IMG/VR virus record: IMGVR_UViG_3300037195_001698
Coordinates: 1 to 45,280 of that record
From: a virus
Taxonomy: Duplodnaviria; Caudoviricetes
Reading direction: 5' to 3' (one strand)
Length of the DNA stretch: 45,280 bases
Shown: one piece after another, positions 1 through 21,327 of the stretch
Layout: each line of letters starts with the position of its first letter
Position numbering within the stretch: position 1 is the stretch's first letter
The notes under the pieces: model-generated
What the model was told of the DNA's origin: nothing
The model's database searches: none
The model's input: the letters and a program-made list of their open reading frames with translations, nothing else
Program-made: the position numbers and the translations under genes

Positions 1-293
1 TGAAAATGAAGTGCGATGAGATGCCGCCTCAATGTCGTCTTTTGCTTTTCGATGGGGCTGTCAACCACGGCGTTGGATTGATGTCTTTGATTTTGCAGAG
101 GGCATTAGGGGTGACTGCTGACGGTGTGATCGGACCAGTGACGATTGGAGCTGCCAAGAATATATCAGCTGATCGATTGGCAATTCGGCTCGCGCAGGCC
201 CGGGCACAGATCTATCGTAAGAACAGAAACTTTTTTGTGTACGGTCGAGGCTGGCTCAACCGCCTGGTTGATGTCGTTTACAGGTCTCGCTAA
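1..293 (+). CDS. Endolysin GH108, 3' part with peptidoglycan-binding domain
   Basis: FDGAVNHG, LQRALGVTADGVIGPVT and GRGWLNR are typical GH108/PG_binding_3 motifs. Confidence 0.92.
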   Translation, partial: KMKCDEMPPQCRLLLFDGAVNHGVGLMSLILQRALGVTADGVIGPVTIGAAKNISADRLAIRLAQARAQIYRKNRNFFVYGRGWLNRLVDVVYRSR

Positions 294-655
294 AGCAAAT
301 TTTTAAAGCTAGTGTTCAAAGCCTTGGCAAGCTTTTGAGCTGAGATCTTTCCGATCGGCCGCTTTCCTCTTTCCATTTCAGAGATGTGACTTTGGTTGAC
401 CCCGGATTTTTCGGACAACTCGCTCTGACTCATCCCTTCACGAAGACGAAAGCCCTTTAAAGCCACCGCACTCTCAGAAGTCTCTTCGAGCTCATCCTTA
501 AGGACCTCACGCCAAGGAAGAGAATCATTGACCTCTTCATAGCCTTTGACAATCTTTAAGACCTGATCGGCCTTTGCTTTAGGGACACGAAACGATCGTC
601 CGTTGATCTCAATTTTTGCGCCCTTAGTAGGGCGCTTTTTCGCGGCTTCCGACAT
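290..655 (-). CDS. XRE-family HTH antitoxin (HigA-like)
   Basis: C-terminal HTH_3 (LKGFRLREGMSQSELSEKSGVNQSHISEMERGKRPIG); downstream of and overlapping a RelE-like gene. Confidence 0.85.
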   Translation of the reverse strand: MSEAAKKRPTKGAKIEINGRSFRVPKAKADQVLKIVKGYEEVNDSLPWREVLKDELEETSESAVALKGFRLREGMSQSELSEKSGVNQSHISEMERGKRPIGKISAQKLAKALNTSFKNLL

Positions 656-890
656 AATAAACCTCTATCTCAATTCCTTTTTTTGTTTCTCTCCAACATG
701 CGACCCAGCTGTATGATAGGTGGCAGTGGTAGTCGTCATTTTCTAGTGGGCTGTAGTTTGGCCACGCTGGCTGATAGGGGCCGCTATTTTCAAGATCTTT
801 GATTAGGGCCACAAGCTTGGCTTTCATTCCCTTTGGCAGGTTCTGAATCCCTTTTGTAGCCTTCTTTTTGATTACTACTGTCCACTTCAT
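624..890 (-). CDS. RelE/HigB-like type II toxin (mRNA interferase); likely start MKWTV at 890
   Basis: About 88 aa, basic; WPNYSPL..YHCHL and IEVYYVGSREKAPY; toxin-before-antitoxin order. Confidence 0.8.
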   Translation of the reverse strand: MKWTVVIKKKATKGIQNLPKGMKAKLVALIKDLENSGPYQPAWPNYSPLENDDYHCHLSYSWVACWRETKKGIEIEVYYVGSREKAPY

Positions 891-900
891 GATCTTATCA

Positions 901-951
901 TATCCCATAAATGGGATAAAGTAAATAATAAAATGGGATAAAAAGGGGATA
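901..951. promoter_or_regulatory. Probable toxin-antitoxin operator/promoter
   Basis: Palindrome TATCCCAT-AA-ATGGGATA at 901-918, plus half-sites ATGGGATA (933-940) and GGGGATA (945-951) just upstream of the toxin. Confidence 0.6.
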
Positions 952-970
952 TTCTCAAAGCGAGATATCG

Positions 971-1570
971 TTATTTTAGAGCTGAGGACGTTGGGTGATT
1001 TCTCCTAAATTTTTCTAGGTCGTCAGCAGCTTGTTTTGCAAGTTTTCGAAGTCCAGATCTCGGCATGGGGTATTTGGTCCCATCGACGTCGAAAGCATAA
1101 ACCTTCCTCCACGTCGAGATTTCATCCTTAATGGCTCGCAGAAAGTCCTCACTGTACACCTTGTCTCTAATCACGATATTTACGGCGTGACCGGGATCGA
1201 TTGGCTTGGCAGCGCCGTAGTCGGTGAGCAGGGCTCTGTGAACTTCATCGGACCCGAAGTATGAATGGGTCATCAGGTTCGGGTCTTTCCTAATTCTATT
1301 TTTGATTTGTGTCCACAGGGGGAGCTTGTATTCTGCGCCGACAGCCTGGATACATACTGCGCGCCGAGAAGTGTTCACTAGCCCAATCAGGTGCGCTAGC
1401 TCTGGACTGTTGGATTGCTGATCCAGCCTGTTGAGGCTCTTCAGTTCACCTCTGACGAACCAAAATTTTATAGACTTCTTGTCGCGAAAAATACTTACCA
1501 TCAAGGCAGTACCGCTGACAGCTAATGAAAACCCCGACAGCACTAGGGCTGCAATGTCTTTTAGATCCAT
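971..1570 (-). CDS. Membrane-anchored hypothetical protein (lysogenic conversion/moron)
   Basis: N-terminal hydrophobic helix IAALVLSGFSLAVSGTALMVSIF followed by RDKK; likely start MDLKD at 1570 (ORF open to 1609). Confidence 0.7.
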   Translation of the reverse strand: MDLKDIAALVLSGFSLAVSGTALMVSIFRDKKSIKFWFVRGELKSLNRLDQQSNSPELAHLIGLVNTSRRAVCIQAVGAEYKLPLWTQIKNRIRKDPNLMTHSYFGSDEVHRALLTDYGAAKPIDPGHAVNIVIRDKVYSEDFLRAIKDEISTWRKVYAFDVDGTKYPMPRSGLRKLAKQAADDLEKFRRNHPTSSALK

Positions 1571-1584
1571 GTCTGTTTTTACCC

Positions 1585-2145
1585 TTACTTGGCGTTCGAC
1601 TTCCACCACTTTTGATATTTTTCTGAATCTGAGCTCACGAGGACTTGGTTTGAACCATCTTTTGATTCGGCATTGTGGGCATATAAGAGGAACTCTTTAA
1701 CAGATGCAAACTTTGCTGGCTGAACAATTTTGTCATCTGCGCGTTGTTCGATCTTAGTTTGGTAGGCAGGCATCGTGAGAAGCTTTTCAAACCCACCGCT
1801 TGCGCAAGATTTGTTTTCAGCAATCGGCATGAGTCCGCTGTGGTCCCAGCCCCTAGCGCTATGAAGTCTTAGGTAGGTCCCGCGGGTCACGTCGAAATAG
1901 GCGAGTGTGCAGCCCTCGCGCTCATTGATTGTGCCCTCGCCAACCTTCATGTCCATCACACAAAGAACAGTGTTCTCGATCGTTCCTTGGTTTTTGAAAA
2001 AGTACGCGCCGACAGCTAAGTGACAGGCCTTCTTTGAACTCACGAATTTCTTCACGCGTTCTAGTTTAATCGGCGTTTGAGCGTTAGCTGTGGTCATCAG
2101 TGTGCTGGCGCAAACGAATGCGCCAATGAAAATCAGGTGTTTCAT
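1585..2145 (-). CDS. Secreted/periplasmic hypothetical protein
   Basis: GGGGGA Shine-Dalgarno before ATG 2145; signal peptide MKHLIFIGAFVCASTLMTTANA-Q with an A-N-A cleavage site; four Cys in the mature part. Confidence 0.75.
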   Translation of the reverse strand: MKHLIFIGAFVCASTLMTTANAQTPIKLERVKKFVSSKKACHLAVGAYFFKNQGTIENTVLCVMDMKVGEGTINEREGCTLAYFDVTRGTYLRLHSARGWDHSGLMPIAENKSCASGGFEKLLTMPAYQTKIEQRADDKIVQPAKFASVKEFLLYAHNAESKDGSNQVLVSSDSEKYQKWWKSNAK

Positions 2146-2192
2146 TTCATCCCCCTGGGGGAGTTTTCGGAATATACAGACATTGACTTTAG

Positions 2193-2825
2193 TTAAGACG
2201 CTAAGGTCGCGGCTCGACAAGCTTTTTCGGCATACTCTAAAATGTCCTGATAGTTGTCCCGAGCGGTGACAAGGTTTTCCAATACGAGTTCAAGCTCGGA
2301 CTCAGAAATCGAATCAACCAGTTCAAGTGCGCTTTCGATATGCTCTTGGTCCTCCTCTGAGTGCAGCTTTAAAAACGTCGTAGATTTTTCTCCATAATGT
2401 TTGACCTTATGGAGCAGTGTCGGGCCATGTTTACAGGCGAGGCCTTCTAAGAAAAGAATCCAGCCCATGAAGACCGCTGGACCGTGTACGTCTAAGATGT
2501 CGAATTGAAAACGATGAAACCGCCTTGCCTCATTGGATTCAACTCCTACCGAAAAGCCCATGTTTTTAAGGTCATTTTCTGCAAGCTTTTCGTGATTTGT
2601 TTCTTCGGCAACGTGAGCGATAAAGCGCTTGTGAAAATTCTCTTGATCTAATCTCGCTCTGCCAGCGGCAATAGACAGCAAACGGGTCGAGTGCTTTACA
2701 AAATGATAGGTTTGCGACAACCATCCTGCATACATTTCGGGGCGATCCCAGGGTCTGTTTAAAAACACTGGTTCAAATTCATCGATGATCTTTTCAAACT
2801 CGTTTCTAAATTCTTTTTTTGTCAT
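2193..2825 (-). CDS. Heme-oxygenase-like diiron oxidase (HDO; iron-containing redox enzyme, CADD/PqqC/UndA fold)
   Basis: Helical 210 aa with ligand pattern H71-x2-E74E75-x2-H78, E127 (FLEG) and H155-x3-D159-x2-H162. Confidence 0.85.
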   Translation of the reverse strand: MTKKEFRNEFEKIIDEFEPVFLNRPWDRPEMYAGWLSQTYHFVKHSTRLLSIAAGRARLDQENFHKRFIAHVAEETNHEKLAENDLKNMGFSVGVESNEARRFHRFQFDILDVHGPAVFMGWILFLEGLACKHGPTLLHKVKHYGEKSTTFLKLHSEEDQEHIESALELVDSISESELELVLENLVTARDNYQDILEYAEKACRAATLAS

Positions 2826-3502
2826 GCCGCAACCCCCATTCGTTCGCTTCGTTTTGTAAAATCAATTCGTGTGTTCCAGATCTCATCAGAAAGTCTCATG
2901 CTCGGCAGGTCATTGTATCTGGTAAGCTCGCTTGCAACGGCGTAGGTCAAATCAACGCTGACGCCGTATTTGTCTTTCTGCGATCCGGCTTTTTTAAATC
3001 CAATTTCTTCGACGAGATCTGTGGTTTTGGTCACGCGCCGTGGGTGTCCAAAAACCCCGTCCAAATCAAGCGAGCGCATGAGCTTGACCGAGCAATCCAT
3101 GATTGTCTTGTATAGGTGAGCATCGATCATTCTTGGTGAAAACTCTCGAGCAACCGATGTGTACTCAAGAGAAAGAACTTGGCGTAATCCTTCTGACTTC
3201 ATTTGCGCAAGCGGTTCACCTTGCCAGCATTCAAAAAATGGGTGATCAGGAATGATCAGCCGGTCTAGATCGTAGTGAGTTGCCATCGACTGTGCAGCAA
3301 TAACACCGTCATTTTCGATCTGGATCACATAATCTTGGCGAAAAAATCCCATTGCCGAGTATTGAGGCGGTCGATTAGGTCGATTGAATATCCGTTCCCA
3401 GGTGTTTTTAAAATAGGAATAGCCGCGGTCATGGGTTTGCTGGTGCTCGTCCCATGGATAAATCCGGCCAGGATAGATTGAGAGGCTGAAGTTACGTTCC
3501 AT
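2822..3502 (-). CDS. Putative GNAT-fold acyltransferase (LuxI/FeeM N-acyl amino acid synthase-like)
   Basis: GNAT-like order of elements: YVIQIENDGVIAAQ strands, VLSLEYTSVAREF central strand, IMDCSVKLMRSLDLDGVFG helix-strand, LVEEIGFKK; ATGA coupling to the HDO gene. Fold judged by eye. Confidence 0.55.
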   Translation of the reverse strand: MERNFSLSIYPGRIYPWDEHQQTHDRGYSYFKNTWERIFNRPNRPPQYSAMGFFRQDYVIQIENDGVIAAQSMATHYDLDRLIIPDHPFFECWQGEPLAQMKSEGLRQVLSLEYTSVAREFSPRMIDAHLYKTIMDCSVKLMRSLDLDGVFGHPRRVTKTTDLVEEIGFKKAGSQKDKYGVSVDLTYAVASELTRYNDLPSMRLSDEIWNTRIDFTKRSERMGVAA

Positions 3503-3636
3503 TTAAGCCCTTTCGTTAAGATATCTGATGCTAAAGTCACCAGCTTTATAGTTTTTAAGACCACAAGTCCTAAAATCGAGGAGATAACTTTACTGACTGT
3601 TCGGAACGGTGCTATGAATCTTTAGAGGTAATTAAG

Positions 3637-4056
3637 ATGCCAAGACTTCCGAACCCTAATCATTACGATCATTTTGGGATTTATCTAAGAGACGTTCGCC
3701 AGGCACTTAGGGACGATAGAGATCGTCGCCAACAAGCCGAGGCCCCTGGCTTTACGGCCAAAGGCGTGTTCACCCAGCGGGATGTTATCCGGCGGCTAAA
3801 CTATCTTGACGACCTGGGACAGCCTTCAGCGTCGATGGCTCAGTACCTTTCGAACATAGAGCGGGGGGTGGAGTGGCCATCGGTTGACTTCGCAACCGAA
3901 TTGGCTCAGTTGTATCGGATACACCCAAAAGTTGTTTATAAGTTTTTTATGAAAAAGAGATCGGTCGAATTGAGGGGGAGCATCGGCCTAACAGATGAGG
4001 ATATCGATGCCAGCTCTGAGGATCTGCAAATCAAATCGCCGAAACCCAATAGATGA
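3637..4056 (+). CDS. XRE-family HTH transcriptional regulator
   Basis: FGIYLRDVR...FTQRDV...AQYLSNIERGVEWPS..LAQLY; GAGGT Shine-Dalgarno; divergent from the acyltransferase/HDO operon. Confidence 0.8.
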   Translation: MPRLPNPNHYDHFGIYLRDVRQALRDDRDRRQQAEAPGFTAKGVFTQRDVIRRLNYLDDLGQPSASMAQYLSNIERGVEWPSVDFATELAQLYRIHPKVVYKFFMKKRSVELRGSIGLTDEDIDASSEDLQIKSPKPNR

Positions 4057-4687
4057 ATTTTTCATCGTTACAGCTTTGCTCGCACAGACTCTAAAATCCA
4101 AAGGGGTTCCACTGGAATCGGACCCCTATCTAATCTATGACGAATTTAAAGAGGCCGACCCGGGTCGCCAGCGGGACTTCTTAGATAAGTGTCGCTTCTA
4201 TATCCGAGCATCTGAAAAAGCGATCGAGCAAGAGATTGAGCTTTTGCACGATAAGCAATTCATTTGGAATACAGTCAAGGACATGGGCCTAGTTTTGCCG
4301 AGCGATGTGTTTGAGTTGATAACCGACCACGACGAGGTGGAGATTTACGACTCTCGTGGAATCCAGGTGTTTGCAAACTTCGAGTTTTTCCGGAAAGTTT
4401 CCTATACCCCAGAAGAAATGTACTGGAAAAGTTGGGCTGAGCTATTTGAACGAGACCAAAAACACTTCGACCAACTTATGCAAAATTTTGTCTATTCGAT
4501 CACCGAGGCGACCGGTCCGTTTAAGCCGTCGATCGATAAGCATTTGGCTTGGGAAATAGGTTCACGGCGGATGAAAAAAAACTTGGTTGAGTTCAAAATG
4601 TTCGCACCGATCCGCTCAAAGCTCACAAATGAAAAGTACATGATCGCATCAAGCCGAATGGACCTTGTTTCTGAACAGCCTGTTTAG
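3995..4687 (+). CDS. PAS-domain protein (stand-alone sensor, no output domain)
   Basis: DEVEIYDSRGIQVFANFEFFRKVSYTPEEMYWKSWAELF matches the PAS consensus (i.D..G.i...N..f.....y..eE); start 3995 or 4007 (GAGGA Shine-Dalgarno). Confidence 0.7.
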   Translation: MRISMPALRICKSNRRNPIDEFFIVTALLAQTLKSKGVPLESDPYLIYDEFKEADPGRQRDFLDKCRFYIRASEKAIEQEIELLHDKQFIWNTVKDMGLVLPSDVFELITDHDEVEIYDSRGIQVFANFEFFRKVSYTPEEMYWKSWAELFERDQKHFDQLMQNFVYSITEATGPFKPSIDKHLAWEIGSRRMKKNLVEFKMFAPIRSKLTNEKYMIASSRMDLVSEQPV

Positions 4688-4792
4688 TTCTTAAAGGTCC
4701 GCACTTTGTAGACCTTTTTCAAAATCAAAGAACAAAGGAGATCTCTTTATAGCTTTTTCGTTACAGTTCAGACAGTTTCTGTCAGGACTTTT

Positions 4793-5143
4793 ATGGGCGA
4801 AAAAGATTATCTTCTAGAACTTATCGAGGCTTACGATGCGCTAGCTATTCCGAGAGGGTATGCCCCGGCTGGAAGCTATGAGCGTATTCGAACAATGCCT
4901 GAACATAGGCTCAAGGGATTTTGCCTTTCCTTGGAGTATTACATTGAGTCTATGGGGGGAACGCCGCCAAGAGAAAAGGCTTTGCGGCCTGAATCCGCGC
5001 CAGTGCTGTCAATTTCTGAGCAGCTGGTTTTAACAGAAGAGCAGGTCGATAACCTGTTGGAACAAGTCAAAGCAACCTTTAAGGGGTTGCGCGACAGTGA
5101 ATCATCCAGCCATGTCTTTTTTGAACTCGGATATAACAAATGA
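4793..5143 (+). CDS. Hypothetical protein; apparent internally deleted paralog of the PAS protein
   Basis: AGGA Shine-Dalgarno; three collinear segments resemble 3995..4687. Confidence 0.6.
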   Translation: MGEKDYLLELIEAYDALAIPRGYAPAGSYERIRTMPEHRLKGFCLSLEYYIESMGGTPPREKALRPESAPVLSISEQLVLTEEQVDNLLEQVKATFKGLRDSESSSHVFFELGYNK

Positions 5144-5539
5144 GAGCCGATCTTCGGGTACTTTTAGAACGGCCAGCGCGAAAGCGATCGCAGCTTGGGT
5201 TCCGACATCTTCCCACTTCGCTTTATAATTGTCGCGTTCAGCCTGGAGCTTCTCGATTTCGCCCTTTAGGGCAGCGTTCTCGTTTACAAGTTTTGCCATT
5301 GCATCAACGGTCGGACTCGGCTCATTCGAGGATTCTAAAAAATACGACTCATCTATTTTCAGGACTTCGAGAAGATTCTTATAGTGCTCAGGCGACGGTC
5401 GGTACTTGCCGGATTCCCAGCGGCCAACCTGCGATGTAGCAACTCCGAGTAATTCGGCTAGCGCAGCCTGGGTCTTTATTCCCAGTTCGAGGCGGCGACT
5501 CTTAATTTTTTGCCCAATAGCTTGATTATAAACCTTCAA
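5102..5539 (-). CDS. CI-like immunity repressor (XRE HTH plus coiled coil, no S24 peptidase)
   Basis: IGQKIKSRRLELGIKTQAALAELLGVATSQVGRWESGKYRP; divergent from the cro-like gene; TTG start at 5539 with AAGGA Shine-Dalgarno (ORF open to 5617). Confidence 0.8.
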   Translation of the reverse strand: MKVYNQAIGQKIKSRRLELGIKTQAALAELLGVATSQVGRWESGKYRPSPEHYKNLLEVLKIDESYFLESSNEPSPTVDAMAKLVNENAALKGEIEKLQAERDNYKAKWEDVGTQAAIAFALAVLKVPEDRLSFVISEFKKDMAG

Positions 5540-5609
5540 TGATTTCAATCCTTTATGACAGTATACGCCTAAAGACCCGCTTTTAAATGCCTCTATCCTG
5601 CAAAAAGTA

Positions 5610-5648
5610 TTGGACAATGTGCATGATAGTGTTATTATAAGTGCATGA
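5610..5648 (+). promoter_or_regulatory. Rightward early (PR-like) sigma70 promoter with candidate operator repeats
   Basis: TTGGAC (5610-5615)-17 bp-TATTAT (5633-5638); GTGCATGA repeated at 5619 and 5641. Confidence 0.6.
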
Positions 5649-5884
5649 AGCAGCTAAGATGGAATAATGAAGCGATTAAAACATGGGCGGATCAATATGG
5701 TACGGAGTCGGCCACAGATATGATCAAGGCCAAACTCAAGTGTTCCCGCCATACGGCATACGCGCTTGCTAGGGGGGCCTATCGAAGTAACCCGGACCCA
5801 CTAAAGCAGGTGGCGATGTCAGAGCTTACGGGGATTTCTCAAGAGGATCTGATGGTTCCAGACCCTGACGAGAAGGCCTCGTAA
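5645..5884 (+). CDS. Cro-like small DNA-binding protein
   Basis: 79 aa, first gene divergent from the repressor; HTH-like IKAKLKCSRHTAYALARG. Confidence 0.6.
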   Translation: MKQLRWNNEAIKTWADQYGTESATDMIKAKLKCSRHTAYALARGAYRSNPDPLKQVAMSELTGISQEDLMVPDPDEKAS

Positions 5885-5998
5885 GCTAGATTGTCCATCA
5901 CAATGTTAATTATTTAATGCCTGAAATACAGGCAAATGGATTCGTGCGAAAAAAATCAATGGCGTTGTCAAAAAGTTGGCCGCTGTTTGGAGGGAAAA

Positions 5999-6781
5999 AT
6001 GTCGGAAGCGAAATTATACCAGGAAGAAACTGTGCCCGAGTATCACCAGAGTGGACTCGGAATGTATTTGAAGTGCCAGCTTCAATTTTATTTCAGATAT
6101 CTGCAAGGAATTGTGATCCCGCCATCGGCTGCGCTCACGCTTGGGAAGTCGGTCGATGAAGGTGTGACCCATAACTTAATCCAAAAGACAGAGTCACGGC
6201 AGGACCTACCTTTGGGTGACGTGTTAGATGCGTACTCGTCGAAGTTTGACGCTGAAACTCCGGGAACTGATTGGAAAGGTGAGGGGGCTGGAAAAACCAA
6301 GGATGTCGGAATTGCCTTAATCAAACTGCATCACACTAAGGTAGCTCCAAATATACAGCCTGTGACTGTTCAGGAAGAGTTCAATATTGAAACCGATGAG
6401 GGGTATTCGATTGGTGGAACATTCGATCTGACAGATGAAAATGGATTCATTCGAGATACGAAAACGTCAAAGACAAAATACTCAGACGACGCCGTTGAGA
6501 CTTCTATTCAAGCTGCGGTCTATGACTTTGCTCACGAGGTTAAGAAAGGCCAAAAGGCGAAAGGGTTTGTCTTCGACGTGCTCAAGAAAACGAAGGTTCC
6601 AGACTATCAAGAAGTTGTCGGCCAGGTATCCCGGCATCAGCAAGACATGGTTCTTGGCGCCTTCACAGATATGCACAAGAACATCCAGACGGGTCGATTC
6701 ATGCCTGCGCCAGAAGGTGCATGGTGGTGTTCTAAAAGTTGGTGTGGCTACTGGTCACAGTGCAAAGGAAAAAAGTCATGA
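5999..6781 (+). CDS. PD-(D/E)xK exonuclease, RecB/Cas4-like with Fe-S cysteines
   Basis: YLKCQ, GTFDL, IRDTKTS, QAAVY and WWCSKSWCGYWSQC; GGAGG Shine-Dalgarno before ATG 5999. Confidence 0.85.
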   Translation: MSEAKLYQEETVPEYHQSGLGMYLKCQLQFYFRYLQGIVIPPSAALTLGKSVDEGVTHNLIQKTESRQDLPLGDVLDAYSSKFDAETPGTDWKGEGAGKTKDVGIALIKLHHTKVAPNIQPVTVQEEFNIETDEGYSIGGTFDLTDENGFIRDTKTSKTKYSDDAVETSIQAAVYDFAHEVKKGQKAKGFVFDVLKKTKVPDYQEVVGQVSRHQQDMVLGAFTDMHKNIQTGRFMPAPEGAWWCSKSWCGYWSQCKGKKS

Positions 6782-7590
6782 GTAATACTGCAAAAAAGAA
6801 CGAAATTGTGGTGGTTCCTGATACGTCGTCACTTCCACTAGATAGTCAGGCTGTTGAATCACTAAAGAATCGACGAGCACTATTGAAAGAATTTGTAAGT
6901 TCTCAGCTTGTTAAGGGATCCGATTACGGAACTATTCCAGGGGTGCCAAAGCCGCTCTTGCTGAAGCCTGGTGCTGAAAAACTTGGGATGCTCTTTAACT
7001 TGAGGTCTGAGACGTCGTGCATTCAAAGAGACTTTGATCTTCATTCGAACTTTTGCATGTACACATACAAGACTCAGCTTTTCCATATCCCTACTGGGAA
7101 CCTGATTGCTGAGCTAGAAGGTTCATGCAACTCGCAAGAAAAGAAATACAGAACACGCAGCATCTACGAGTGGGTTTTTGATCAGCGGGAAAACAAACGA
7201 AAGAAAAAACTTGTTCGAGAAGAGCCGACACAGATTGCTGACATCAGCAATACGCTTATGAAGATGGCACAAAAAAGAGCTTTCGTTGGGGCGATGATTA
7301 TTGCTACGGGTGCGTCCGATTTCTTTACTCATGATTTAGATGACCGGCAAGACTCTTGGGGGGATGAAATGGCTTCTAAGGGGGCAACCAGGTCGAAGCG
7401 ACCAGGCGTCAAAAATGTTTCATCTCAGGTGCAAAATCCTCACGAAGAGCGAGATGTTTCGAAACCATCTTGTAAGGTGTGCGGATCAAACCTGATTCAA
7501 TCGAAATTTGAAGATGCCCTCTACTGCCCGAATTATAAAGATCGGTCGAACGGTGAGCACACGAAAATTCCAGCAGGAGGCAAGTCATGA
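6778..7590 (+). CDS. Putative single-strand annealing protein (Rad52/ERF-like recombinase) with C-terminal Zn ribbon
   Basis: DYGTIPGVPKPLLLKPGAEK and NTLMKMAQKRAFVGA...SDFFTHD; CKVC...YCP..H; lies between the exonuclease and SSB. Confidence 0.65.
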   Translation: MSNTAKKNEIVVVPDTSSLPLDSQAVESLKNRRALLKEFVSSQLVKGSDYGTIPGVPKPLLLKPGAEKLGMLFNLRSETSCIQRDFDLHSNFCMYTYKTQLFHIPTGNLIAELEGSCNSQEKKYRTRSIYEWVFDQRENKRKKKLVREEPTQIADISNTLMKMAQKRAFVGAMIIATGASDFFTHDLDDRQDSWGDEMASKGATRSKRPGVKNVSSQVQNPHEERDVSKPSCKVCGSNLIQSKFEDALYCPNYKDRSNGEHTKIPAGGKS

Positions 7591-8558
7591 GTACTGCAAT
7601 ATCATTTCTTAAAGATATAACGCCAGAAGTTGTCTTCACTGAGGATGGCGCAGATCGCATCATTGCAGAGGTACGAAGGCAGGCCTTGGCGTTTGCGCCG
7701 GATGTATCAACTGAAGCCGGAAGAAAAGAGATCGCCTCAATGGCTTATGGTGTAGCTCGGTCAAAGACTGTTGTGGATGAAGTTGGAAAACAAGTTGTAG
7801 TCGAGTGGAAAAGAAAGGCGAGCAAAATCGATGCGATACGCAAAAGAATTCGTGATGAACTAGATTGCCTCAAACTTGAAGTGCGCAGGCCTTTAACGGA
7901 TTGGGAGAACGCAGAGAAGGATCGGGTTAACAAACTCGAAAAATTGCTGTCTGAGATAGAGGTCCAGGGAATCGACCTCGAAGGCCTTGGGTCGGATCAG
8001 CTGGTTGTGCGCCTTGCTGCTCTTGAAAACCTGGTCGTGGATGAAGCATTTCAGGAATACCAAGAGCAGGCCCAGTTGGCTCGCTACAAATCAATGGAGT
8101 TAGTTCGGAGAGCATACGACAAAGCTGTTGTCGATGAAAAGGTTGAGGCCGAACGAATCAAATCTGAAAGAAAGCGGGCCGAGCAAGAGCAAAAAGATCG
8201 AGAAGAGGCTATCCGCAAAGAGGCTGAAGCAAAGGCAAAAGCTGAGGCTGAGCAAAAAGCAGAGCAAGAAAGAAAACAACAGCAAGAGGAGTTACAGCGT
8301 GCAAAAGAAGCTGAAGCAAAAGCAAAAGCGGATGCAGAAAAAGCAAGACAGGATGAGCGCGATCGCATCGAAGCCGAAGCGAAGGCCCGAAAGGCATTAC
8401 AAGATAAAAGAGAAGCGGACGATGAATACCGAAGAGTTGTTATTTCTGCTGCCTCTGCTTCGCTATGCGAAAAGATTTCGCTGAACCAAGATGTTGCTAT
8501 GGCGATTGTTAAGGCGATCGCGGACGGCGAAATCAAACACTTAAAGGTTGAGTTCTAA
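7587..8558 (+). CDS. Coiled-coil phage protein of recombination modules (DUF1351/TolA-annotated type)
   Basis: PDVSTEAGRKEIASMAYGVARSKT and VRRPLTDWE; long E/K/A coiled coil; C-terminal IADGEIKHLKVEF. Confidence 0.65.
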   Translation: MSTAISFLKDITPEVVFTEDGADRIIAEVRRQALAFAPDVSTEAGRKEIASMAYGVARSKTVVDEVGKQVVVEWKRKASKIDAIRKRIRDELDCLKLEVRRPLTDWENAEKDRVNKLEKLLSEIEVQGIDLEGLGSDQLVVRLAALENLVVDEAFQEYQEQAQLARYKSMELVRRAYDKAVVDEKVEAERIKSERKRAEQEQKDREEAIRKEAEAKAKAEAEQKAEQERKQQQEELQRAKEAEAKAKADAEKARQDERDRIEAEAKARKALQDKREADDEYRRVVISAASASLCEKISLNQDVAMAIVKAIADGEIKHLKVEF

Positions 8559-8565
8559 GGGGGAT

Positions 8566-8982
8566 ATGGTGGGTACATTAAACAAAGCAATGATCATTGG
8601 GTATCTTGGCGGCGACCCAGAGCTCAAGCGTCTTGATAGTGGAAAAGTTGTGGCCACTTTCAGTCTCGCTACAAGTTCTAATTGGGTCGATGACAATGGT
8701 GAAATCCACGAAAACACTGAGTGGCATCGGGTTGTTGTCTGGGGCAAGAAAGCTGAGAACTGTGGGAAGTACTTGGCTAAAGGTCGTCGAGTGTATGTCG
8801 AGGGCCGACTACAGACCCGAACATGGGAAGACCAACAGGGAATCAAACGATACACAACTGAGATCACGGCAAGCGTTGTCACATTTTTGTCACCGAATAC
8901 GACGACAGATTATGGTCATGAGTCGCCTGGCTACGACGATGAGGCTGAGCACTTTTCATCAAACAGTAAGATTCCGTTTTAG
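8566..8982 (+). CDS. ssb: Single-stranded DNA-binding protein
   Basis: LNKAMIIGYLGGDPE, TEWHRVV, YVEGRLQTR and C-terminal IPF. Confidence 0.95.
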   Translation: MVGTLNKAMIIGYLGGDPELKRLDSGKVVATFSLATSSNWVDDNGEIHENTEWHRVVVWGKKAENCGKYLAKGRRVYVEGRLQTRTWEDQQGIKRYTTEITASVVTFLSPNTTTDYGHESPGYDDEAEHFSSNSKIPF

Positions 8983-8990
8983 GAGATGCA

Positions 8991-9206
8991 ATGAAGCTAG
9001 TAGTTGTACTAACAAACAGAGAGACAGGCGAGATCTTTGACGTGGTTGATAAGACAAGGTTGGTTCCTGCCATTAGAGAGTGTAACAAAATCCATGCAAC
9101 AATGGGCAAGCACTGTAGGGTTAGAGTCTTGAGTCTAGACTCAGAAACCGAACAACCAAAAGTTGAGTATGATCCCGAAGAGAACATGTTGCAGGTGGCC
9201 CAATGA
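8991..9206 (+). CDS. Hypothetical protein
   Basis: AGGAG Shine-Dalgarno; packed in the operon. Confidence 0.6.
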   Translation: MKLVVVLTNRETGEIFDVVDKTRLVPAIRECNKIHATMGKHCRVRVLSLDSETEQPKVEYDPEENMLQVAQ

Positions 9207-9616
9207 GTGCTCGCAAGGTTAATTGGATTCAACGCCCCGAGGCTTCGATGAAGTCTTTCGATGATGATCTAAAAGTTTTCGTTGAGAGCTCAGACTTTAA
9301 TGCCGAGCTATTCGAGATCTTGAATACCTACGTTGCAGGATATTCCGATGGTGTGGATGTCGTTGTTGATAAAATGATATTGGAGATAAAGCCAAGGTCA
9401 GCTGTTGCTTTAAGCATTAGGCTTGAGGATGGGCAAAGCTTGTCTGTTATCGCCGAGAATAAAACCTATGAAGTCGATGTCTCGGACTGGTTCTCTAATC
9501 CCGATAGCGAACAAAAGAAGCGGTTCAAAGAAGATATCGAGCTCGAAATTGCAGAGCGGATGGCCGAGCGAATTCAAGCTGGTTTTTACGATCAAGAGGA
9601 GTGGCCATGTTTGTAG
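9203..9616 (+). CDS. Hypothetical protein
   Basis: ATGA overlap with the previous gene; acidic 137 aa. Confidence 0.6.
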   Translation: MSARKVNWIQRPEASMKSFDDDLKVFVESSDFNAELFEILNTYVAGYSDGVDVVVDKMILEIKPRSAVALSIRLEDGQSLSVIAENKTYEVDVSDWFSNPDSEQKKRFKEDIELEIAERMAERIQAGFYDQEEWPCL

Positions 9617-9858
9617 CATCATTAATGCGTGAGAAACGAAAAGCGCTTGGGCTTACTCAGAAAAAGCTGGCAGTAAATATCGGCGCATTCTCGGATCAGT
9701 TTGTGTCGAACCTTGAGCGTGGAGCTGATCCCTTTCCGCCCAAATATTTGAGGTCGGTAGGCGATGCTCTCAAGATTGATAAGTCCGAAATGCTTGAGGC
9801 TTACCTAAGCGATGAGCGCGAAAAGTTTGATCGAGCATGGGGCGAACCTGAATTTTAG
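9607..9858 (+). CDS. XRE-family HTH protein
   Basis: MREKRKALGLTQKKLA...QFVSNLERG. Confidence 0.85.
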   Translation: MFVASLMREKRKALGLTQKKLAVNIGAFSDQFVSNLERGADPFPPKYLRSVGDALKIDKSEMLEAYLSDEREKFDRAWGEPEF

Positions 9859-9906
9859 AAACCATCCCAAACGGGATTATTGAAATAGGAAAAAGGTGGG
9901 GGAAAG

Positions 9907-10239
9907 ATGGAAACAGAAGTCACAAGATTATTTGAAGAGAGCGTTGATCGTTTATCTAAAGACGAATTCACGTTTGTTCAGTATGAGATGGGTCGAGCTA
10001 TCGCAAAAGTTTTAAAGCAGCACGATATCGATCCAATGTCTTTCGATGGTGCTGAGTTTGAATTTTCGTATCGTCGAGAATACCTGGGCACGAAGCTGAT
10101 GGACAGTGCATTTCTCGACGTTCGAGATGGTTCAGATACTGAGGATCGGTTGAGAAAGGTTCGCAAGTATCGTTTTCAAGCTCGCTTTGAGCAGGCCATC
10201 ATCAGCAAAGATCGAAAAAGAATTCCGAATTTTATTTGA
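9907..10239 (+). CDS. Hypothetical protein
   Basis: GGGGG Shine-Dalgarno; 110 aa in operon orientation. Confidence 0.6.
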   Translation: METEVTRLFEESVDRLSKDEFTFVQYEMGRAIAKVLKQHDIDPMSFDGAEFEFSYRREYLGTKLMDSAFLDVRDGSDTEDRLRKVRKYRFQARFEQAIISKDRKRIPNFI

Positions 10240-10425: not shown

Positions 10426-10752
10426 ATGGGCGCTAGGCTAACGGTTTACATAGATGGTATCGGTGAGCTTCCCAGGTTCATGACGCCGGACGAGCTAGCT
10501 ACATTACTTGTTGATGAGGATAAAGTCTCAGCGATGCGGCACAAGCTTTATAGGCAGATTCGTGATCAAAAAATAAGCATAGCGCCACATGATAAACCAT
10601 ACTTAATTGACGTGAAGTCGTATTTTGAGCAAAAAAAAGAGCAGACACCTTGCCGGGTTGACCGCTCTTTGAAAAGTAAATCACTTGCAAGATCATCTTC
10701 GTCACGACGACTCCGAAAATCGAAAGGAGACATGTCGTGTCTAATAAAATGA
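10426..10752 (+). CDS. Excisionase-like DNA-binding protein
   Basis: FMTPDELATLL...LYRQIRDQKI...YLID, a winged-HTH/HTH_17-like pattern; directly upstream of and overlapping the integrase. Confidence 0.55.
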   Translation: MGARLTVYIDGIGELPRFMTPDELATLLVDEDKVSAMRHKLYRQIRDQKISIAPHDKPYLIDVKSYFEQKKEQTPCRVDRSLKSKSLARSSSSRRLRKSKGDMSCLIK

Positions 10753-11792
10753 TCCAAAAAGATCCGACGATACGGAAAGACAAATCCCGTGATCGTTGGC
10801 TCTTAAACTACTATGAAAACGGTCAAAGAAGAAAGCGTTATTTCAAGACCAAAGAGCTCGCTGAGCGAGAGAGAAAAACGGTCTTGGCTCAGCGTAACGC
10901 TGTCCACTTTGATTGCGCAACGATCGTTGACGCTATCAACGAGTACCGAAAACTTGTCAGCGTAAAAAAGGCGGCGGGGAAACTCGAGCGAAAATACTTC
11001 ATTGATTTGGCCCAGTTTCTTCATGACGAGTGCGGGCGAGAGTTGATGGATGAGATCAAGCCAACCGACCTAATTGGTTATCGGAACTATCGGCTTGAGA
11101 CTGTTGGCGCATCTATGGTCAATCGAGAGTTCAGCACGTTTAAGCATTTTTTTAAAAAAGCCAAAGCGTGGGGGCTTTCTTCGGTGAACCCCGCAGAGTC
11201 TATCGAGCGTATGCCTGAGTCTGAGAACCCACATCAGGGCTGGACGTACAGGGAGCTTGAAATAATTGTGGCAGCTGTTAGTCCGCAAATGGGGCGGCTA
11301 ATCCGCTTTATTGCAGCGACCGGTTGCCGACCTTCAGAAGCCAAGAAGATTAAGTGGAAGGATGTTGACCTCACTAAAATGACCGTCACCTTCAGATCTC
11401 TGAAGGGTGGAAAGGGTGAGCTGGTCGACACAATACCACTGGTTGACGAAGGGGCTGATCCGATCATCGAGATCGCAGAACTTGAGCGCACTCGCTTTAA
11501 GCGAAAGCCAGATGATTATGTGTTCTTAAATGAAGAGGGATATCCCTTTTCAAGGTGCGCGTTATCAAAGGCGGTGCAGAGAGCGTGTGACAGGCAGAAG
11601 CTTAGAGCTTTAGTTCCTTACGGTCTTCGTCACATGGTTGGTGAGATCTATGGCGCTGAGAATATCGAACTAGCTCGACGGGTACTTCGGCACAGAAGCA
11701 TCCGAACGACTCAGCGGTATACCAATTTAAAGTTAGAAACGCTTCGAGAGAAGATGACCAATGTAACACAGCAACGGGAGGGACTGGGATAA
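10737..11792 (+). CDS. int: Tyrosine integrase
   Basis: TGCRPSEA (R), YGLRH (xxxR), LRH and TTQRY (catalytic Y); N-terminal arm-binding beta domain; AAGGAG Shine-Dalgarno before GTG. Confidence 0.93.
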   Translation: MSNKMIQKDPTIRKDKSRDRWLLNYYENGQRRKRYFKTKELAERERKTVLAQRNAVHFDCATIVDAINEYRKLVSVKKAAGKLERKYFIDLAQFLHDECGRELMDEIKPTDLIGYRNYRLETVGASMVNREFSTFKHFFKKAKAWGLSSVNPAESIERMPESENPHQGWTYRELEIIVAAVSPQMGRLIRFIAATGCRPSEAKKIKWKDVDLTKMTVTFRSLKGGKGELVDTIPLVDEGADPIIEIAELERTRFKRKPDDYVFLNEEGYPFSRCALSKAVQRACDRQKLRALVPYGLRHMVGEIYGAENIELARRVLRHRSIRTTQRYTNLKLETLREKMTNVTQQREGLG

Positions 11793-11811
11793 CCGGGCCC
11801 TAACCGGGCCC
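11780..11811 (+). repeat. attP left arm-type sites
   Basis: GGGACTGGGATA (11780-11791) overlapping tandem TAACCGGGCCC x2 (11790-11811). Confidence 0.75.
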
Positions 11812-11881
11812 ACCGAAAAACAGTGCTCAACCTTTTGGGCCCTGTGACTTCGGTAAGATTGGAAAATTACTAGGGAAAATT

Positions 11882-11930
11882 TGGAGCGGCAGACCGGGCT
11901 CGAACCGGCGACCTCAACCTTGGCAAGGTT
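11882..11930 (-). other. attP core: 3' 49 nt of tRNA-Gly(GCC), from the anticodon arm to CCA; not a complete tRNA
   Basis: Minus strand reads AACCTTGCCAAGGTTGAGGTCGCCGGTTCGAGCCCGGTCTGCCGCTCCA; D-arm and 5' acceptor strand absent; 90 bp after int. Confidence 0.92.
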
Positions 11931-11962
11931 AAACTAGGTCGTTTGTGGCGTAGTTGATTTTG

Positions 11963-11975
11963 TAAGTCATTGAAA
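11963..11975 (-). promoter_or_regulatory. IHF-like binding site in attP
   Basis: Minus strand TTTCAATGACTTA, one mismatch to WATCAANNNNTTR. Confidence 0.45.
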
Positions 11976-12027
11976 TCACATAACCCTCTATTCGCATAAT
12001 TTGCATTATTTCCTGGTGTTCCGAGAC

Positions 12028-12059
12028 ACCGGGCCCTAACCGGGCCCTATCCCAGTCCC
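12028..12059 (+). repeat. attP right arm-type sites
   Basis: ACCGGGCCCTAACCGGGCCC is a direct copy of the left arm; TATCCCAGTCCC (12048-12059) is an inverted copy of 11780-11791. Confidence 0.75.
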
Positions 12060-12076
12060 CCTTAGATGGGGGAAAA

Positions 12077-13553: not shown

Positions 13554-14349
13554 TGGCTTGGATCTGTTTACAGGAATTGGTGGCATCACGATCGCGCTTG
13601 AAGGTTACGTTGAGCCAATTGCCTATTGCGAGCGCGACCTGTACTGCATCGGACTTCTTTTGGAGCGAATGCGAGATGAAAGAATCCCACAGGCCCCGAT
13701 ATGCACAGATGTTCGATCGCTTCGGGGTTCTGATTTTCGAGACGTTGACATTATTTACGGCGGATTCCCATGCCAGGACATCAGCAGTGCAGGCAATGGA
13801 ATCGGCCTGGGCGGAAAGCGAAGCGGATTATATTGGGAAATACATCGACTCGCTAAAGAAACGAAAGCCCCGTTTATTTTCTTGGAAAACGTGCCTGCAA
13901 TACGGACCAGAGGCCTTATCGAAGTGGTCCGATCACTTACCGATCTCGGCTATGACTGTCGCTGGACTTCTAACACAGCCGCCTCAGTTGGCGCGCCACA
14001 TAAAAGGGAAAGGTGGTTTCTGCTTGCCCACGCCAACAGCGACGGACCACAGGCGGGACTACCAACTCCAGCCCCGTACGAAAACAAAAGTCTACAGCCT
14101 ATCCGGCCTATTCGAACATCGACTTTTACCAACGCCGATGGCGAGAGATTGGCGGGGTTCAACAGGGAAAAACCGGCATACACAGAACCTTCCAAATCTA
14201 TATCAAAAAAATGGGAAACAACTAAACCCAGCCTTTGTCGAGGCCATCATGGGCTACGACATCGGGTGGACAGACTTAAAGGCCTTGGAAACGCGGTTGT
14301 CCCGCAGCAAGCCCGGGCCGCGTTTGAGCAATTGATGGGGATAAAATGA
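13546..14349 (+). CDS. C5 cytosine DNA methyltransferase, alpha polypeptide (motifs I-VIII and X)
   Basis: LDLFTGIGG, GGFPCQDIS, FLENV, HKRERWF and RLKGLGNAVVP; GTG start 13546 (ORF open from 13510). Confidence 0.92.
   Translation: MLNGLDLFTGIGGITIALEGYVEPIAYCERDLYCIGLLLERMRDERIPQAPICTDVRSLRGSDFRDVDIIYGGFPCQDISSAGNGIGLGGKRSGLYWEIHRLAKETKAPFIFLENVPAIRTRGLIEVVRSLTDLGYDCRWTSNTAASVGAPHKRERWFLLAHANSDGPQAGLPTPAPYENKSLQPIRPIRTSTFTNADGERLAGFNREKPAYTEPSKSISKKWETTKPSLCRGHHGLRHRVDRLKGLGNAVVPQQARAAFEQLMGIK
13553..14335 (+). CDS. Overlapping +1-frame polypeptide carrying C5-MTase motif IX (beta-subunit-like)
   Basis: 260 open codons; two LPTPxAxD repeats; QLNPAFVEAIMGYDIGWT; ATG overlaps the upstream stop (TAATG). 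Confidence 0.7.
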   Translation: MAWICLQELVASRSRLKVTLSQLPIASATCTASDFFWSECEMKESHRPRYAQMFDRFGVLIFETLTLFTADSHARTSAVQAMESAWAESEADYIGKYIDSLKKRKPRLFSWKTCLQYGPEALSKWSDHLPISAMTVAGLLTQPPQLARHIKGKGGFCLPTPTATDHRRDYQLQPRTKTKVYSLSGLFEHRLLPTPMARDWRGSTGKNRHTQNLPNLYQKNGKQLNPAFVEAIMGYDIGWTDLKALETRLSRSKPGPRLSN

Positions 14350-18637: not shown

Positions 18638-19352
18638 TTTTGAAACAACTGGGCTCGACCGCGAGCGCGATCAGATCATCGAGGTTGGTGCTGTGCTTTG
18701 GGACGTTGAGGCGTCGCAGCCTGTAAAGATTTTGAGTGAGATGATAAAGCCTGAGGGCGTAACCGAACTGAGCCCCGAGGTGGAGAGTATCACGGGCCTA
18801 AAGATGTCGATGCTTGAGCGATATGGCACATCATACCGAGAGGTGTGGACGAGAGCTCTGGGTGAGATGGCAAAGTGTGCCGATGTTTTTATGGCTCACA
18901 ACGCACCCTTTGATCGGGCGTTCTATGAGCGGGCCATAAGGGACAACGGGCTTGACCCCGGTGAGAAAAAGATCTGGATCAACTCGGAAACCGATCTTCC
19001 AAACAGGGCCTATGAAAAAGGCAGGTCTCGGTCTTTGAGTTATCTGGCGGCCGACCATGGCTTTTTAAATCCGTTTCCTCACCGAGCTGTTACTGACGTG
19101 CTGACCATGTTCAAGGTGTTTGAGCCCTACAGTAACGAGATGGACTTGATCATCGAGCAAGCGATGTCTCCAAGGTTGCTGGTTATTGCTCAGGTCAGCT
19201 TTGAGGACAAGGACTTGGCTAAAAACGCTGGGTTCAAGTGGAATGCTGATCAGAAAACTTGGGAGATGCTGAAACGAAAGTGTGACATGTGGGAAAGGAA
19301 CCCGTTTGAATTCCCCATTAAGGTCATCGAGCAAGGGGGACCGAATGACTAA
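18618..19352 (+). CDS. DEDDh 3'-5' exonuclease (DnaQ-like)
   Basis: GIDFETTG, AHNAPFD and HRAVTDV; C-terminal FEDKDLAKNAGFKW domain. Confidence 0.92.
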   Translation: MKILGIDFETTGLDRERDQIIEVGAVLWDVEASQPVKILSEMIKPEGVTELSPEVESITGLKMSMLERYGTSYREVWTRALGEMAKCADVFMAHNAPFDRAFYERAIRDNGLDPGEKKIWINSETDLPNRAYEKGRSRSLSYLAADHGFLNPFPHRAVTDVLTMFKVFEPYSNEMDLIIEQAMSPRLLVIAQVSFEDKDLAKNAGFKWNADQKTWEMLKRKCDMWERNPFEFPIKVIEQGGPND

Positions 19353-19569
19353 AGCTGGTAGGACCATTGAGGAGTGCGCATTAGAACTTGTTAATCTCCT
19401 TGTGTTTCATGATGGGGTCGGACTTCCTGAAGCGCTCGCCAGTGTTGAGAAGATCCTGATTGAAAAGGCTTTAGAGGTGACTGACGGGAATAAGTCAGGA
19501 GCTGCCAAATTATTGAACCTTAAGCGAAGCACCTTTATAGAGAAGGTTAAGCGATTGGAGATTCAATGA
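19345..19569 (+). CDS. Stand-alone Fis-family HTH protein
   Basis: EKILIEKALEVTDGNKSGAAKLLNLKRSTFIEKVKRL (HTH_8). Confidence 0.85.
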   Translation: MTKAGRTIEECALELVNLLVFHDGVGLPEALASVEKILIEKALEVTDGNKSGAAKLLNLKRSTFIEKVKRLEIQ

Positions 19570-20289: not shown

Positions 20290-20509
20290 GGGCGCAAGGA
20301 TCGAGTGTCCTTACTGTTTCAGAGTCTTGGGACGACTAACCCGCAAGATCCGGCGCGGGGACACGATCAAGGCTGCGGACATTGGTGGGGGAATCGAATT
20401 TAAAAAAGGCTCGAACACCGTTTGTCCAACCTGTCGAAGGCACTTTCTTTTTCAAAATCCAGAGCGCGGGATCCTTTGTTTCATTGAGGGTGAATGGAGA
20501 CGCCTGTGA
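20282..20509 (+). CDS. Zn-ribbon protein
   Basis: CPYC...CPTC; likely TTG start at 20282. Confidence 0.6.
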   Translation: MNEGARIECPYCFRVLGRLTRKIRRGDTIKAADIGGGIEFKKGSNTVCPTCRRHFLFQNPERGILCFIEGEWRRL

Positions 20510-21327
20510 GGTTCGCTCTGTTTCCCCCTAGCAAGGGTGAGCCTATGGATGAGAAAAACAATGTTCCTTTGGACGAGCTGCTTTCGTACTTGGACGCCCA
20601 GGTCCGGCGCAACCTCAACATCTATGCGAGCACTCTGCCCTTCGAGCAGAAAGATGAGATCATCCAAGATGCCAGGTTGCGTATCATAAGATATTCGAAA
20701 AAGTACGACATCGAAAAAGACAAGGGCTGGAAAGCTTTGATTCAAAAGAAAAGCCGGGGCTATGTGCTCGACTATATCCGTGGGCGCAAAGGTTTTATGG
20801 AGTCAAAACTTGGCTCGGATGAGCAAAAATCTGATGAGCAAGATGGTCAAACCCCAAAACCATACACAAAACGAGTAAGCACCACTGGCGTGGGACCCGA
20901 TGGGGAGGATATCCTTGAGCGTGTTATTGATTCAAAACATCATTGCGACCTTAAGTCTAACCTGGATCAAGCAAACTGGGATCTAATTTCACGCATGGCA
21001 TTCCATGATCCATTGATCCACATCGTAGCAAAGCGGATCCTGGGATTTTCACAAGATGAGCTTGCTACAATCTTCCGCGTCAGCCGTGAGAGGATCTCTC
21101 AGTGCGAACGTGAGTTCAGGGAAAAGCTTGATTCCCCGGACTACATCAAGAGTCGTTGGGTTGCACAAACCATCTATGCCTTTGGGCTTTCTGATCAGTA
21201 TCACCAAAACACCGGGGACCTGGGCATTGGATACGAGTATGAACCTGTTGATCTGATGTCGGACAGCGACAACTATCTTGAGCAGATTAGCCCTCAGCTC
21301 TCATTTGACCTTGGTGAAGCGCATTAG
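20494..21327 (+). CDS. Phage sigma70-family factor (probable late-gene sigma)
   Basis: Region 2 DEIIQDARLRI...RGYVLDYIR; region 4 FSQDELATIFRVSRERISQ; directly before terS; start may be 20545. Confidence 0.8.
   Translation: METPVRFALFPPSKGEPMDEKNNVPLDELLSYLDAQVRRNLNIYASTLPFEQKDEIIQDARLRIIRYSKKYDIEKDKGWKALIQKKSRGYVLDYIRGRKGFMESKLGSDEQKSDEQDGQTPKPYTKRVSTTGVGPDGEDILERVIDSKHHCDLKSNLDQANWDLISRMAFHDPLIHIVAKRILGFSQDELATIFRVSRERISQCEREFREKLDSPDYIKSRWVAQTIYAFGLSDQYHQNTGDLGIGYEYEPVDLMSDSDNYLEQISPQLSFDLGEAH

Follow-up and report, generated by a model that had tools for sequence, protein, structure and literature searches.

In the arbitrium system, temperate phages make a peptide signal of their own and sense it with a TPR receptor. 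Self-made signals of another kind are described for Phaeobacter inhibens T5T, in which, according to a preprint (Bunsick et al. 2026, PMC13345283), two prophages make their own acyl-homoserine lactones (AHLs) through xre-luxR-luxI modules that promote lysogeny; of 93 predicted roseobacter prophages, 53 are reported there to have luxI systems, and its main text does not mention Bdellovibrio. The XRE-LuxR-smORF module of Aeromonas phages and the VqmA-Qtip module of VP882 are transcription factor-small open reading frame (TF-smORF) modules, and according to Silpe et al. (2023, PMC10432266) published phage modules pair an XRE regulator with a ligand receptor, once acting through a small orphan antirepressor. 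Here we analyse the IMG/VR virus record IMGVR_UViG_3300037195_001698, a stretch of 45,280 nucleotides referred to below in full as the window, in which a four-gene cassette (acyltransferase, oxidase, XRE regulator and PAS sensor) lies beside a cI-like repressor. This cassette may make and sense a small acylated signal and may bias the lysis-lysogeny switch, a reading that we hold tentatively and place a little short of even. That the cassette is a signal system at all appears quite probable to us, and that such a system would reach the switch slightly better than even.

The cassette and the immunity genes that follow it are laid out as listed here, in agreement with the gene positions given in an earlier note on this DNA, which was made from its letters alone.

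2193..2825, minus strand: heme-oxygenase-like diiron oxidase (HDO), 210 amino acids (PF14518, E 4.3e-11)
2822..3502, minus strand: LuxI/FeeM-fold acyltransferase, 226 amino acids, predicted signal synthase (AF2 model, fold searches, Atlas)
3503..3636, no strand: intergenic region between the divergent genes, in which an imperfect inverted repeat (~3553-3575) is a candidate operator (sequence, palindrome scan)
3637..4056, plus strand: cassette-type XRE regulator, 139 amino acids, with two insertions (family and tree evidence)
3995..4687, plus strand: stand-alone sensor with an N-terminal helical part and a C-terminal PAS fold, probable start 4007 (fold searches)
4793..5143, plus strand: orphan open reading frame (ORF), 116 amino acids, candidate antirepressor or decoy, converging on cI and overlapping its 3' end
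5102..5539, minus strand: cI-like repressor, 145 amino acids, with a helix-turn-helix (HTH) and a predicted coiled coil (PHROGs and profile searches)
5645..5884, plus strand: cro-like small gene heading the early operon (position alone)

The AF2 model of the synthase has the AHL synthases BjaI and RpaI and the synthase FeeM as its top Foldseek and VIA matches, at 8–12% identity, and the LuxI-type GNAT fold proposed in the earlier note is thus upheld by structure. A match to LuxI in sequence was not found: the protein has no Pfam or NCBIfam match at E<=1, and the profile of its family recovered no LuxI in the PDB at E<=10. The synthase family, from Bdellovibrionota and without a name, comprises 520 clusters at 50% identity, and we predict that the protein is a signal synthase. 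The oxidase scores 43.4 bits against PF14518 (curated cut-off 28.9), which places it in the HDO superfamily, and its closest solved structure is 3dde (E 1e-13). Residues H71, E74/E75, H78, E127, H155, D159 and H162 are invariant in 31 sequences; we take them to be the full diiron ligand set that the note had named, an assignment made by comparison with known HDO structures. The HDO likely tailors the acyl signal, or what precedes it, by desaturation or oxidation. A distant HDO relative stands in a Gammaproteobacterial operon (L180, 2823-6974) together with a thermostable hemolysin, an AMP-binding protein and a short-chain dehydrogenase/reductase, the HDO itself being annotated as an iron-containing redox enzyme; this operon is possibly a cousin biosynthetic system.

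Family and fold matches likewise bear out the XRE regulator and the stand-alone PAS protein. The PAS fold covers residues ~110-225 of the sensor, and the top matches listed are of PAS/LOV type. Profile and fold searches returned no LuxR match in the cassette, and the receptor is the stand-alone PAS protein.

The same gene set stands on the chromosomes of Bdellovibrionota. A GNAT profile of the synthase family matched 144 of 401 Bdellovibrionota genomes, many of them incomplete, with 1–4 matches per genome. Atlas clusters of the synthase and of the PAS protein are mostly from Bdellovibrionota, and when GTDB genomes were scanned for the HDO, the best 80 of 84 matches came to 79 loci, most of which carry the label Bdellovibrionota and some Myxococcota. 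We fetched 80 regions around 150 listed of 185 GNAT places, with preference for high scores and long contigs; after de-duplication 146 GNAT genes at 144 loci were left, 78 of the 146 having been found via the HDO. Within 2.5 kb of the 146 GNAT genes, an HDO was present in 129 cases, a desaturase in 22, a PAS gene in 96 and an XRE gene in 62. For the 68 GNAT-anchored genes the counts over the same distance were 51 for HDO, 19 for desaturase, 60 for either or both, 54 for PAS and 35 for XRE; all four roles were found at 33 genes and none of HDO, desaturase, PAS or XRE at four. Gene order and strand are freely shuffled across loci, and fused genes occur (GNAT-HDO in P0042 and P0049, desaturase-GNAT in P0180). 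One synthase can thus be partnered by the HDO, by a membrane desaturase or by both, a pattern suggesting that the acyl chain is tailored.

The unit described in the earlier note therefore recurs, with its fusions and its interchange of HDO and desaturase, on chromosomes and not in phage immunity regions: no linkage to such regions appeared among the 144 loci, an outcome that the note had named among those that would refute its reading. The logic of synthase, oxidase, sensor and regulator in the note holds and is strengthened by these neighbourhoods, but the gene set itself turns out to be a chromosomal Bdellovibrionota cassette.

Cultured Bdellovibrio carry the cassette (L023, L036, L068), and in about 12 Bdellovibrio loci it has the same host neighbours (by eye, thioredoxin, a response regulator and RodA). 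It is also present on pBdHM1 (AP029175), a 161-kb plasmid of Bdellovibrio sp. HM001, as XRE, GNAT-HDO and PAS (L179, 84-2483), with an additional cassette-type XRE at 13915-14244. Two loci (L076, 1349-9971; L093, 5398-14228) hold tandem duplicated cassettes with a transporter between them. There, an AMP-binding-like gene, a weak Pfam match under the cut-off, lies directly upstream of each GNAT gene; these genes and the transporter hint at an acyl donor and an export route. Two tandem PAS genes stand beside a single synthase in L103, L109 and L019, and in L137, L139, L140 and L143 the synthase has no HDO, desaturase, PAS or XRE nearby.

The nearest relatives of the phage cassette among 384 Bdellovibrionales genomes, three of which passed E 1e-20, are in G325 and G552 (GNAT 42–43%), where XRE-PAS-GNAT-HDO are co-directional among genes that read as housekeeping. 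These two loci, L174 and L175 of the order Bdellovibrionales, share 42–43% with the phage in GNAT, 38–40% in HDO, 31–36% in PAS and 30% in XRE, and the phage genes group with them in the trees of GNAT (support 0.99), PAS (0.97) and XRE (0.97). Our best reading is that the phage cassette is a captured host signalling cassette. We infer the direction from host to phage from the distribution of the cassette, the trees (FastTree) being midpoint-rooted and without a clade test.

The one metagenome locus, L001, is 99.99% identical to the window and, not being independent of it, was set aside. A GNAT and PAS variant of 87–89% identity (P0002, P0204) occurs on many contigs, the longest of 443,984 bp, and this contig is listed for none of the 18 other phage proteins found in look-ups. 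Summed over clusters within 90%, contig counts are 34–45 for the cassette genes, cI and cro, 51–78 for ten of 13 other phage genes and 27–31 for the remaining three; the variant GNAT and PAS count 50 and 38. These counts would suit either sister phages whose cassette and immunity region have diverged or a copy in the host.

Next to the cassette, the orphan ORF 4793-5143 runs head-on into cI, with 42 nucleotides of overlap at the 3' end of the repressor gene. It has no homolog at the chromosomal cassettes searched, and the searches run returned no family or homolog beyond variants of the same phage; it is thus a small homolog-less ORF near a cI, as in TF-smORF modules. The proposal in the earlier note that it is a PAS-less paralog found no statistical support. 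No S24 autocleavage domain was detected in cI, and a scan of 28 other phage proteins brought up no antirepressor family. The cro-like gene has no family match and is preceded by a promoter-like site at 5611-5638.

Repeat and promoter scans stayed at chance level, and the palindrome scan of 3503-3636 was run without a chance control. The regions 3503-3636 and 4688-4792 align better than 293 of 300 shuffles, an alignment that we do not count because 45 pairs were compared and 10 of them fell below 0.05 among AT-rich sequences. RNA-library contigs lie over parts of the GNAT gene in three of three RNA runs, all from one study and with DNA carry-over possible. They stop at 3581 and 3583 upstream of this gene in two runs; the gap between cI and cro is likewise flanked by contig ends, at 5599 and 5647. 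These ends fit transcripts from divergent promoters, as far as contigs of one study without strand or level can indicate. Over 3739-4806 two runs have no RNA-library contig and the third almost none, absent contig cover being uninformative.

Based on these observations, we propose a mechanism in four steps. The LuxI/FeeM fold suggests that the synthase would move an acyl group from acyl-coenzyme A or acyl carrier protein to an amine acceptor (S-adenosylmethionine or an amino acid). The HDO would then modify the acyl chain, as the fusions indicate and because a membrane fatty-acid desaturase replaces or joins the HDO in relatives. The product may bind the PAS domain and alter XRE activity at the divergent promoter, giving feedback on synthesis, which is consistent with the co-occurrence of these genes. 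In the last and weakest step, suggested by position and precedent, the XRE/PAS regulator would control 4793-5143, acting as an antirepressor or by convergent transcription on the S24-less cI. If the phage behaves like arbitrium phages and the Phaeobacter prophages, lysogeny would be favoured when its own signal is abundant. The most specific form of this proposal, which joins an undescribed Bdellovibrionota quorum sensing system (LuxI-fold synthase, HDO or desaturase, PAS acting via XRE) to a captured copy wired to a new antirepressor in a phage of a predatory host, we consider unlikely as a whole.

The tie between the cassette and the lysis-lysogeny decision is the weakest of our conclusions, being drawn from position in a single phage lineage, and several results weigh against it or against the signal and capture behind it. 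The intergenic regions of the cassette and the cI/cro region share no sequence above chance (120 and 183 of 300 shuffles reached the score), and many S24-less repressors are controlled by other means. The phage keeps a separate cI/cro pair, whereas the Phaeobacter modules are themselves the switch, and the slot between the lysin and cI also carries a likely toxin-antitoxin pair and two uncharacterised genes, as moron slots do. A prophage-like context was seen in none of the 144 loci of relatives, and 54 phage proteins compared with these loci matched XRE genes only. The two ORFs closest to the cassette on each side, 560 in all, were clustered, and the first 330 residues of 350 representatives were scanned against PHROGs (E<=1e-10); this found one integrase cluster (L110, L156), one transposase and four wall-hydrolase domain matches, further two methyltransferases and host-type enzymes, and no family of repressors, terminases or capsids. 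Resolution in the HDO tree is poor (support 0.51), and the similarity of the synthase fold to other GNATs nearly equals that to LuxI/FeeM. No second phage lineage with the cassette was found in IMG/VR, INPHARED or PHROGs searches, which very near records may escape: viral contigs of IMG/VR were scanned with GNAT or HDO queries, a capsid-query scan likewise confirmed no relative, HDO tblastn against the 50,697 phage records of INPHARED gave none, and PHROGs holds no family for any of the five genes.

The cassette may also signal while leaving the switch untouched, as a moron whose acyl signal joins, supplements or jams the cassette(s) of the host and alters host behaviour, its place next to cI being the usual cargo slot. 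We regard this as possible, if doubtful. It agrees with the phage-free cassettes at 144 loci, with the 1–4 copies in host genomes and the one on the Bdellovibrio plasmid, with the variant on the 443,984-bp contig apart from other phage proteins and with the lack of an operator common to cassette and cI/cro; against it stand the orphan ORF overlapping cI, which is added in the phage, the cI without an S24 domain and the published XRE-containing phage quorum modules that act on the switch (PMC13345283, PMC10432266). It is improbable, in our view, that no diffusible signal is made and that the enzymes either produce a metabolite used inside the cell or in defence or attach acyl groups to a protein or lipid, with PAS and XRE sensing substrate, redox state or lipid pool. 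Such a role would suit the 40 of 146 GNAT genes that have the HDO as only partner and lack a neighbouring PAS or XRE gene (among them genes at loci that bear the label Myxococcota or Bacteriovorax), the arylalkylamine and other small-molecule GNATs that score as high as FeeM against the synthase model, the missing LuxI match in sequence and the biosynthetic operon of the distant HDO relative. However, AHL synthases and FeeM head the structural matches, PADLOC defence-system profiles gave only weak matches (E>=0.003), none meaningful, and the unit of synthase, tailoring enzyme, ligand-binding fold and regulator is found again and again, compact, in shuffled order and in several copies. Finally, that the cassette is a recently captured, decaying passenger with no present role in the phage we judge very improbable: it is found in a single phage lineage and its XRE has unusual insertions, but all reading frames and the HDO ligands are intact, also in variants of 83–95% identity, and its GC and GC3 agree with the remainder of the phage.

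The window is a complete temperate phage of 45 kb. It consists of a single 45,280-base contig, which a terminal repeat of 99 bases marks as a complete circular genome, and a glycosyl hydrolase 108 lysin gene spans the window ends. Its proteins match an integrase, a repressor, a replication initiator, a capsid and a tail sheath in PHROGs, and a terminase-like gene has 28% identity to a Bacillus phage terminase. Three features bear on integration and regulation.

9601..9858, plus strand: another member of the cassette-type XRE family, encoded in the early operon (BLAST, tree)
10737..11792, plus strand: tyrosine integrase (PF00589, E 4e-18; phrog_1, E 9e-48)
11877..11930, minus strand: probable attP core, the 3' part of a tRNA gene (sequence; read by eye as Gly, GCC anticodon)

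The second XRE lies before the integrase in a tree lineage separate from 3637-4056, is nearer by BLAST to the chromosomal cassette XREs than 3637-4056 is, and might serve the PAS sensor as a further output or act as its decoy. Other contigs align to 11877-11930 alone and then diverge onward, so this is likely the attP core. In the attP-like region 11793-12076, repeated motifs containing CCGGGCCC flank the tRNA part at ~11793-11811 and ~12029-12048. The tRNA part matches at 81–94% in 130 of 401 Bdellovibrionota genomes (best 94%), and no exact copy was found in the 401.

The host is likely a marine predatory bacterium, an assignment made from the relatives of the cassette as its sole basis; a search for the phage capsid in 401 Bdellovibrionota genomes found it in none. 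Positions 1-10,000 of the window are present, whole or in part, in 16 runs of six studies, all of them marine metagenomes; six may be where the window itself comes from. For the clusters within 90% of capsid, portal, integrase, cI, cro, 4793-5143, XRE, PAS, GNAT and HDO, the longest contig is in each case 175,972 bp, which suggests a single lysogen contig carrying the entire phage. A sister prophage without the cassette on a 165,552-bp contig was also considered; this reading was dropped, as the protein-cluster look-ups return the longest contig per protein only.

Elsewhere in the phage, a Fis-type HTH_8 protein (19282-19569) and a sigma-factor-like protein (20494-21327) are encoded on the plus strand ahead of the packaging genes. 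The likely toxin-antitoxin pair (290-908, minus strand) consists of a small gene (phrog_32175, function not known) followed by an HTH_3 gene; upstream, at ~901-918, lies a TATCCCAT inverted repeat. Between this pair and the HDO lie two genes annotated without function (971-2136, minus strand), one with an N-terminal hydrophobic segment; the second resembles a secreted Cys-containing protein. RNA-library contigs span 23-2129 in one run.

For Bdellovibrionota, a genome survey reported no predicted acyl-homoserine lactone synthase (bioRxiv 2020.11.01.364414), and the accessible portions of PMC8461301 and PMC3189940 describe no self-made Bdellovibrio signal. The cassette is a concrete candidate for such a predator signal and is present in cultured Bdellovibrio. 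Since temperate phages are known to recruit host quorum modules, the phage copy lends independent circumstantial support to a signalling role, and its five genes with cI/cro form a compact readout that could be set up in E. coli with reporters. Should the cassette indeed be tied to the switch, it would bring new signal chemistry and a new receptor design (PAS with XRE) to phage decisions, and an oxidatively tailored acyl signal would be a third chemical language of phage communication after peptides and AHLs.

Compared with known systems, the locus shares with the Phaeobacter modules (PMC13345283) a phage-borne LuxI-fold synthase, a ligand receptor and an XRE in a compact arrangement with divergent promoters; in those prophages the self-made signal promotes lysogeny and the host has a related system of its own. 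Unlike them, the receptor here is a stand-alone PAS protein without a DNA-binding domain, an HDO is added, and the cassette occurs in one phage lineage rather than dozens and is known from sequence alone. As it has no LuxR, no LuxI sequence match and a separate cI/cro-like pair that follows the module instead of being replaced by it, the phage cassette is not a member of the xre-luxR-luxI family. With the TF-smORF modules it shares an XRE with a ligand receptor and a homolog-less small ORF by the immunity region that could inactivate cI without proteolysis; according to PMC10432266, the signals sensed in those phages come from the host and the smORF is transcribed away from the regulator genes, while here the candidate ORF is larger (116 amino acids), lies downstream on the same strand as XRE-PAS, and the synthase is on the phage.

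The chromosomal cassettes at L174/L175 hold the same four genes, co-directional and among housekeeping genes, whereas in the phage XRE-PAS diverge from GNAT-HDO and are followed by the orphan ORF overlapping cI. BjaI and RpaI, which are CoA-dependent AHL synthases, and FeeM, an N-acyl amino acid synthase, are the best structural counterparts of the phage synthase, with no Pfam or profile match to it. Arbitrium is alike in placing a self-made signal and its receptor on a temperate phage, and differs in its peptide signal and TPR receptor, with no homology to the phage cassette. The four-gene set, in phage or chromosome, was not found described in the literature searched, most subscription journals and supplements lying outside its coverage, so the claim of the earlier note that no such system is described stands, within that coverage, for the gene set. 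It does not extend to the concept of a phage that encodes both synthase and receptor of a non-peptide signal, which is already in print for Phaeobacter prophages, makers and sensors of their own AHLs (PMC13345283). On the whole, the observation in that note is partly confirmed and its interpretation partly supported. The locus, largely as the note describes it, is a probable signal module that the phage has taken from an undescribed cassette of predatory bacteria; the concept of self-signalling is known and the phage-borne copy is new.

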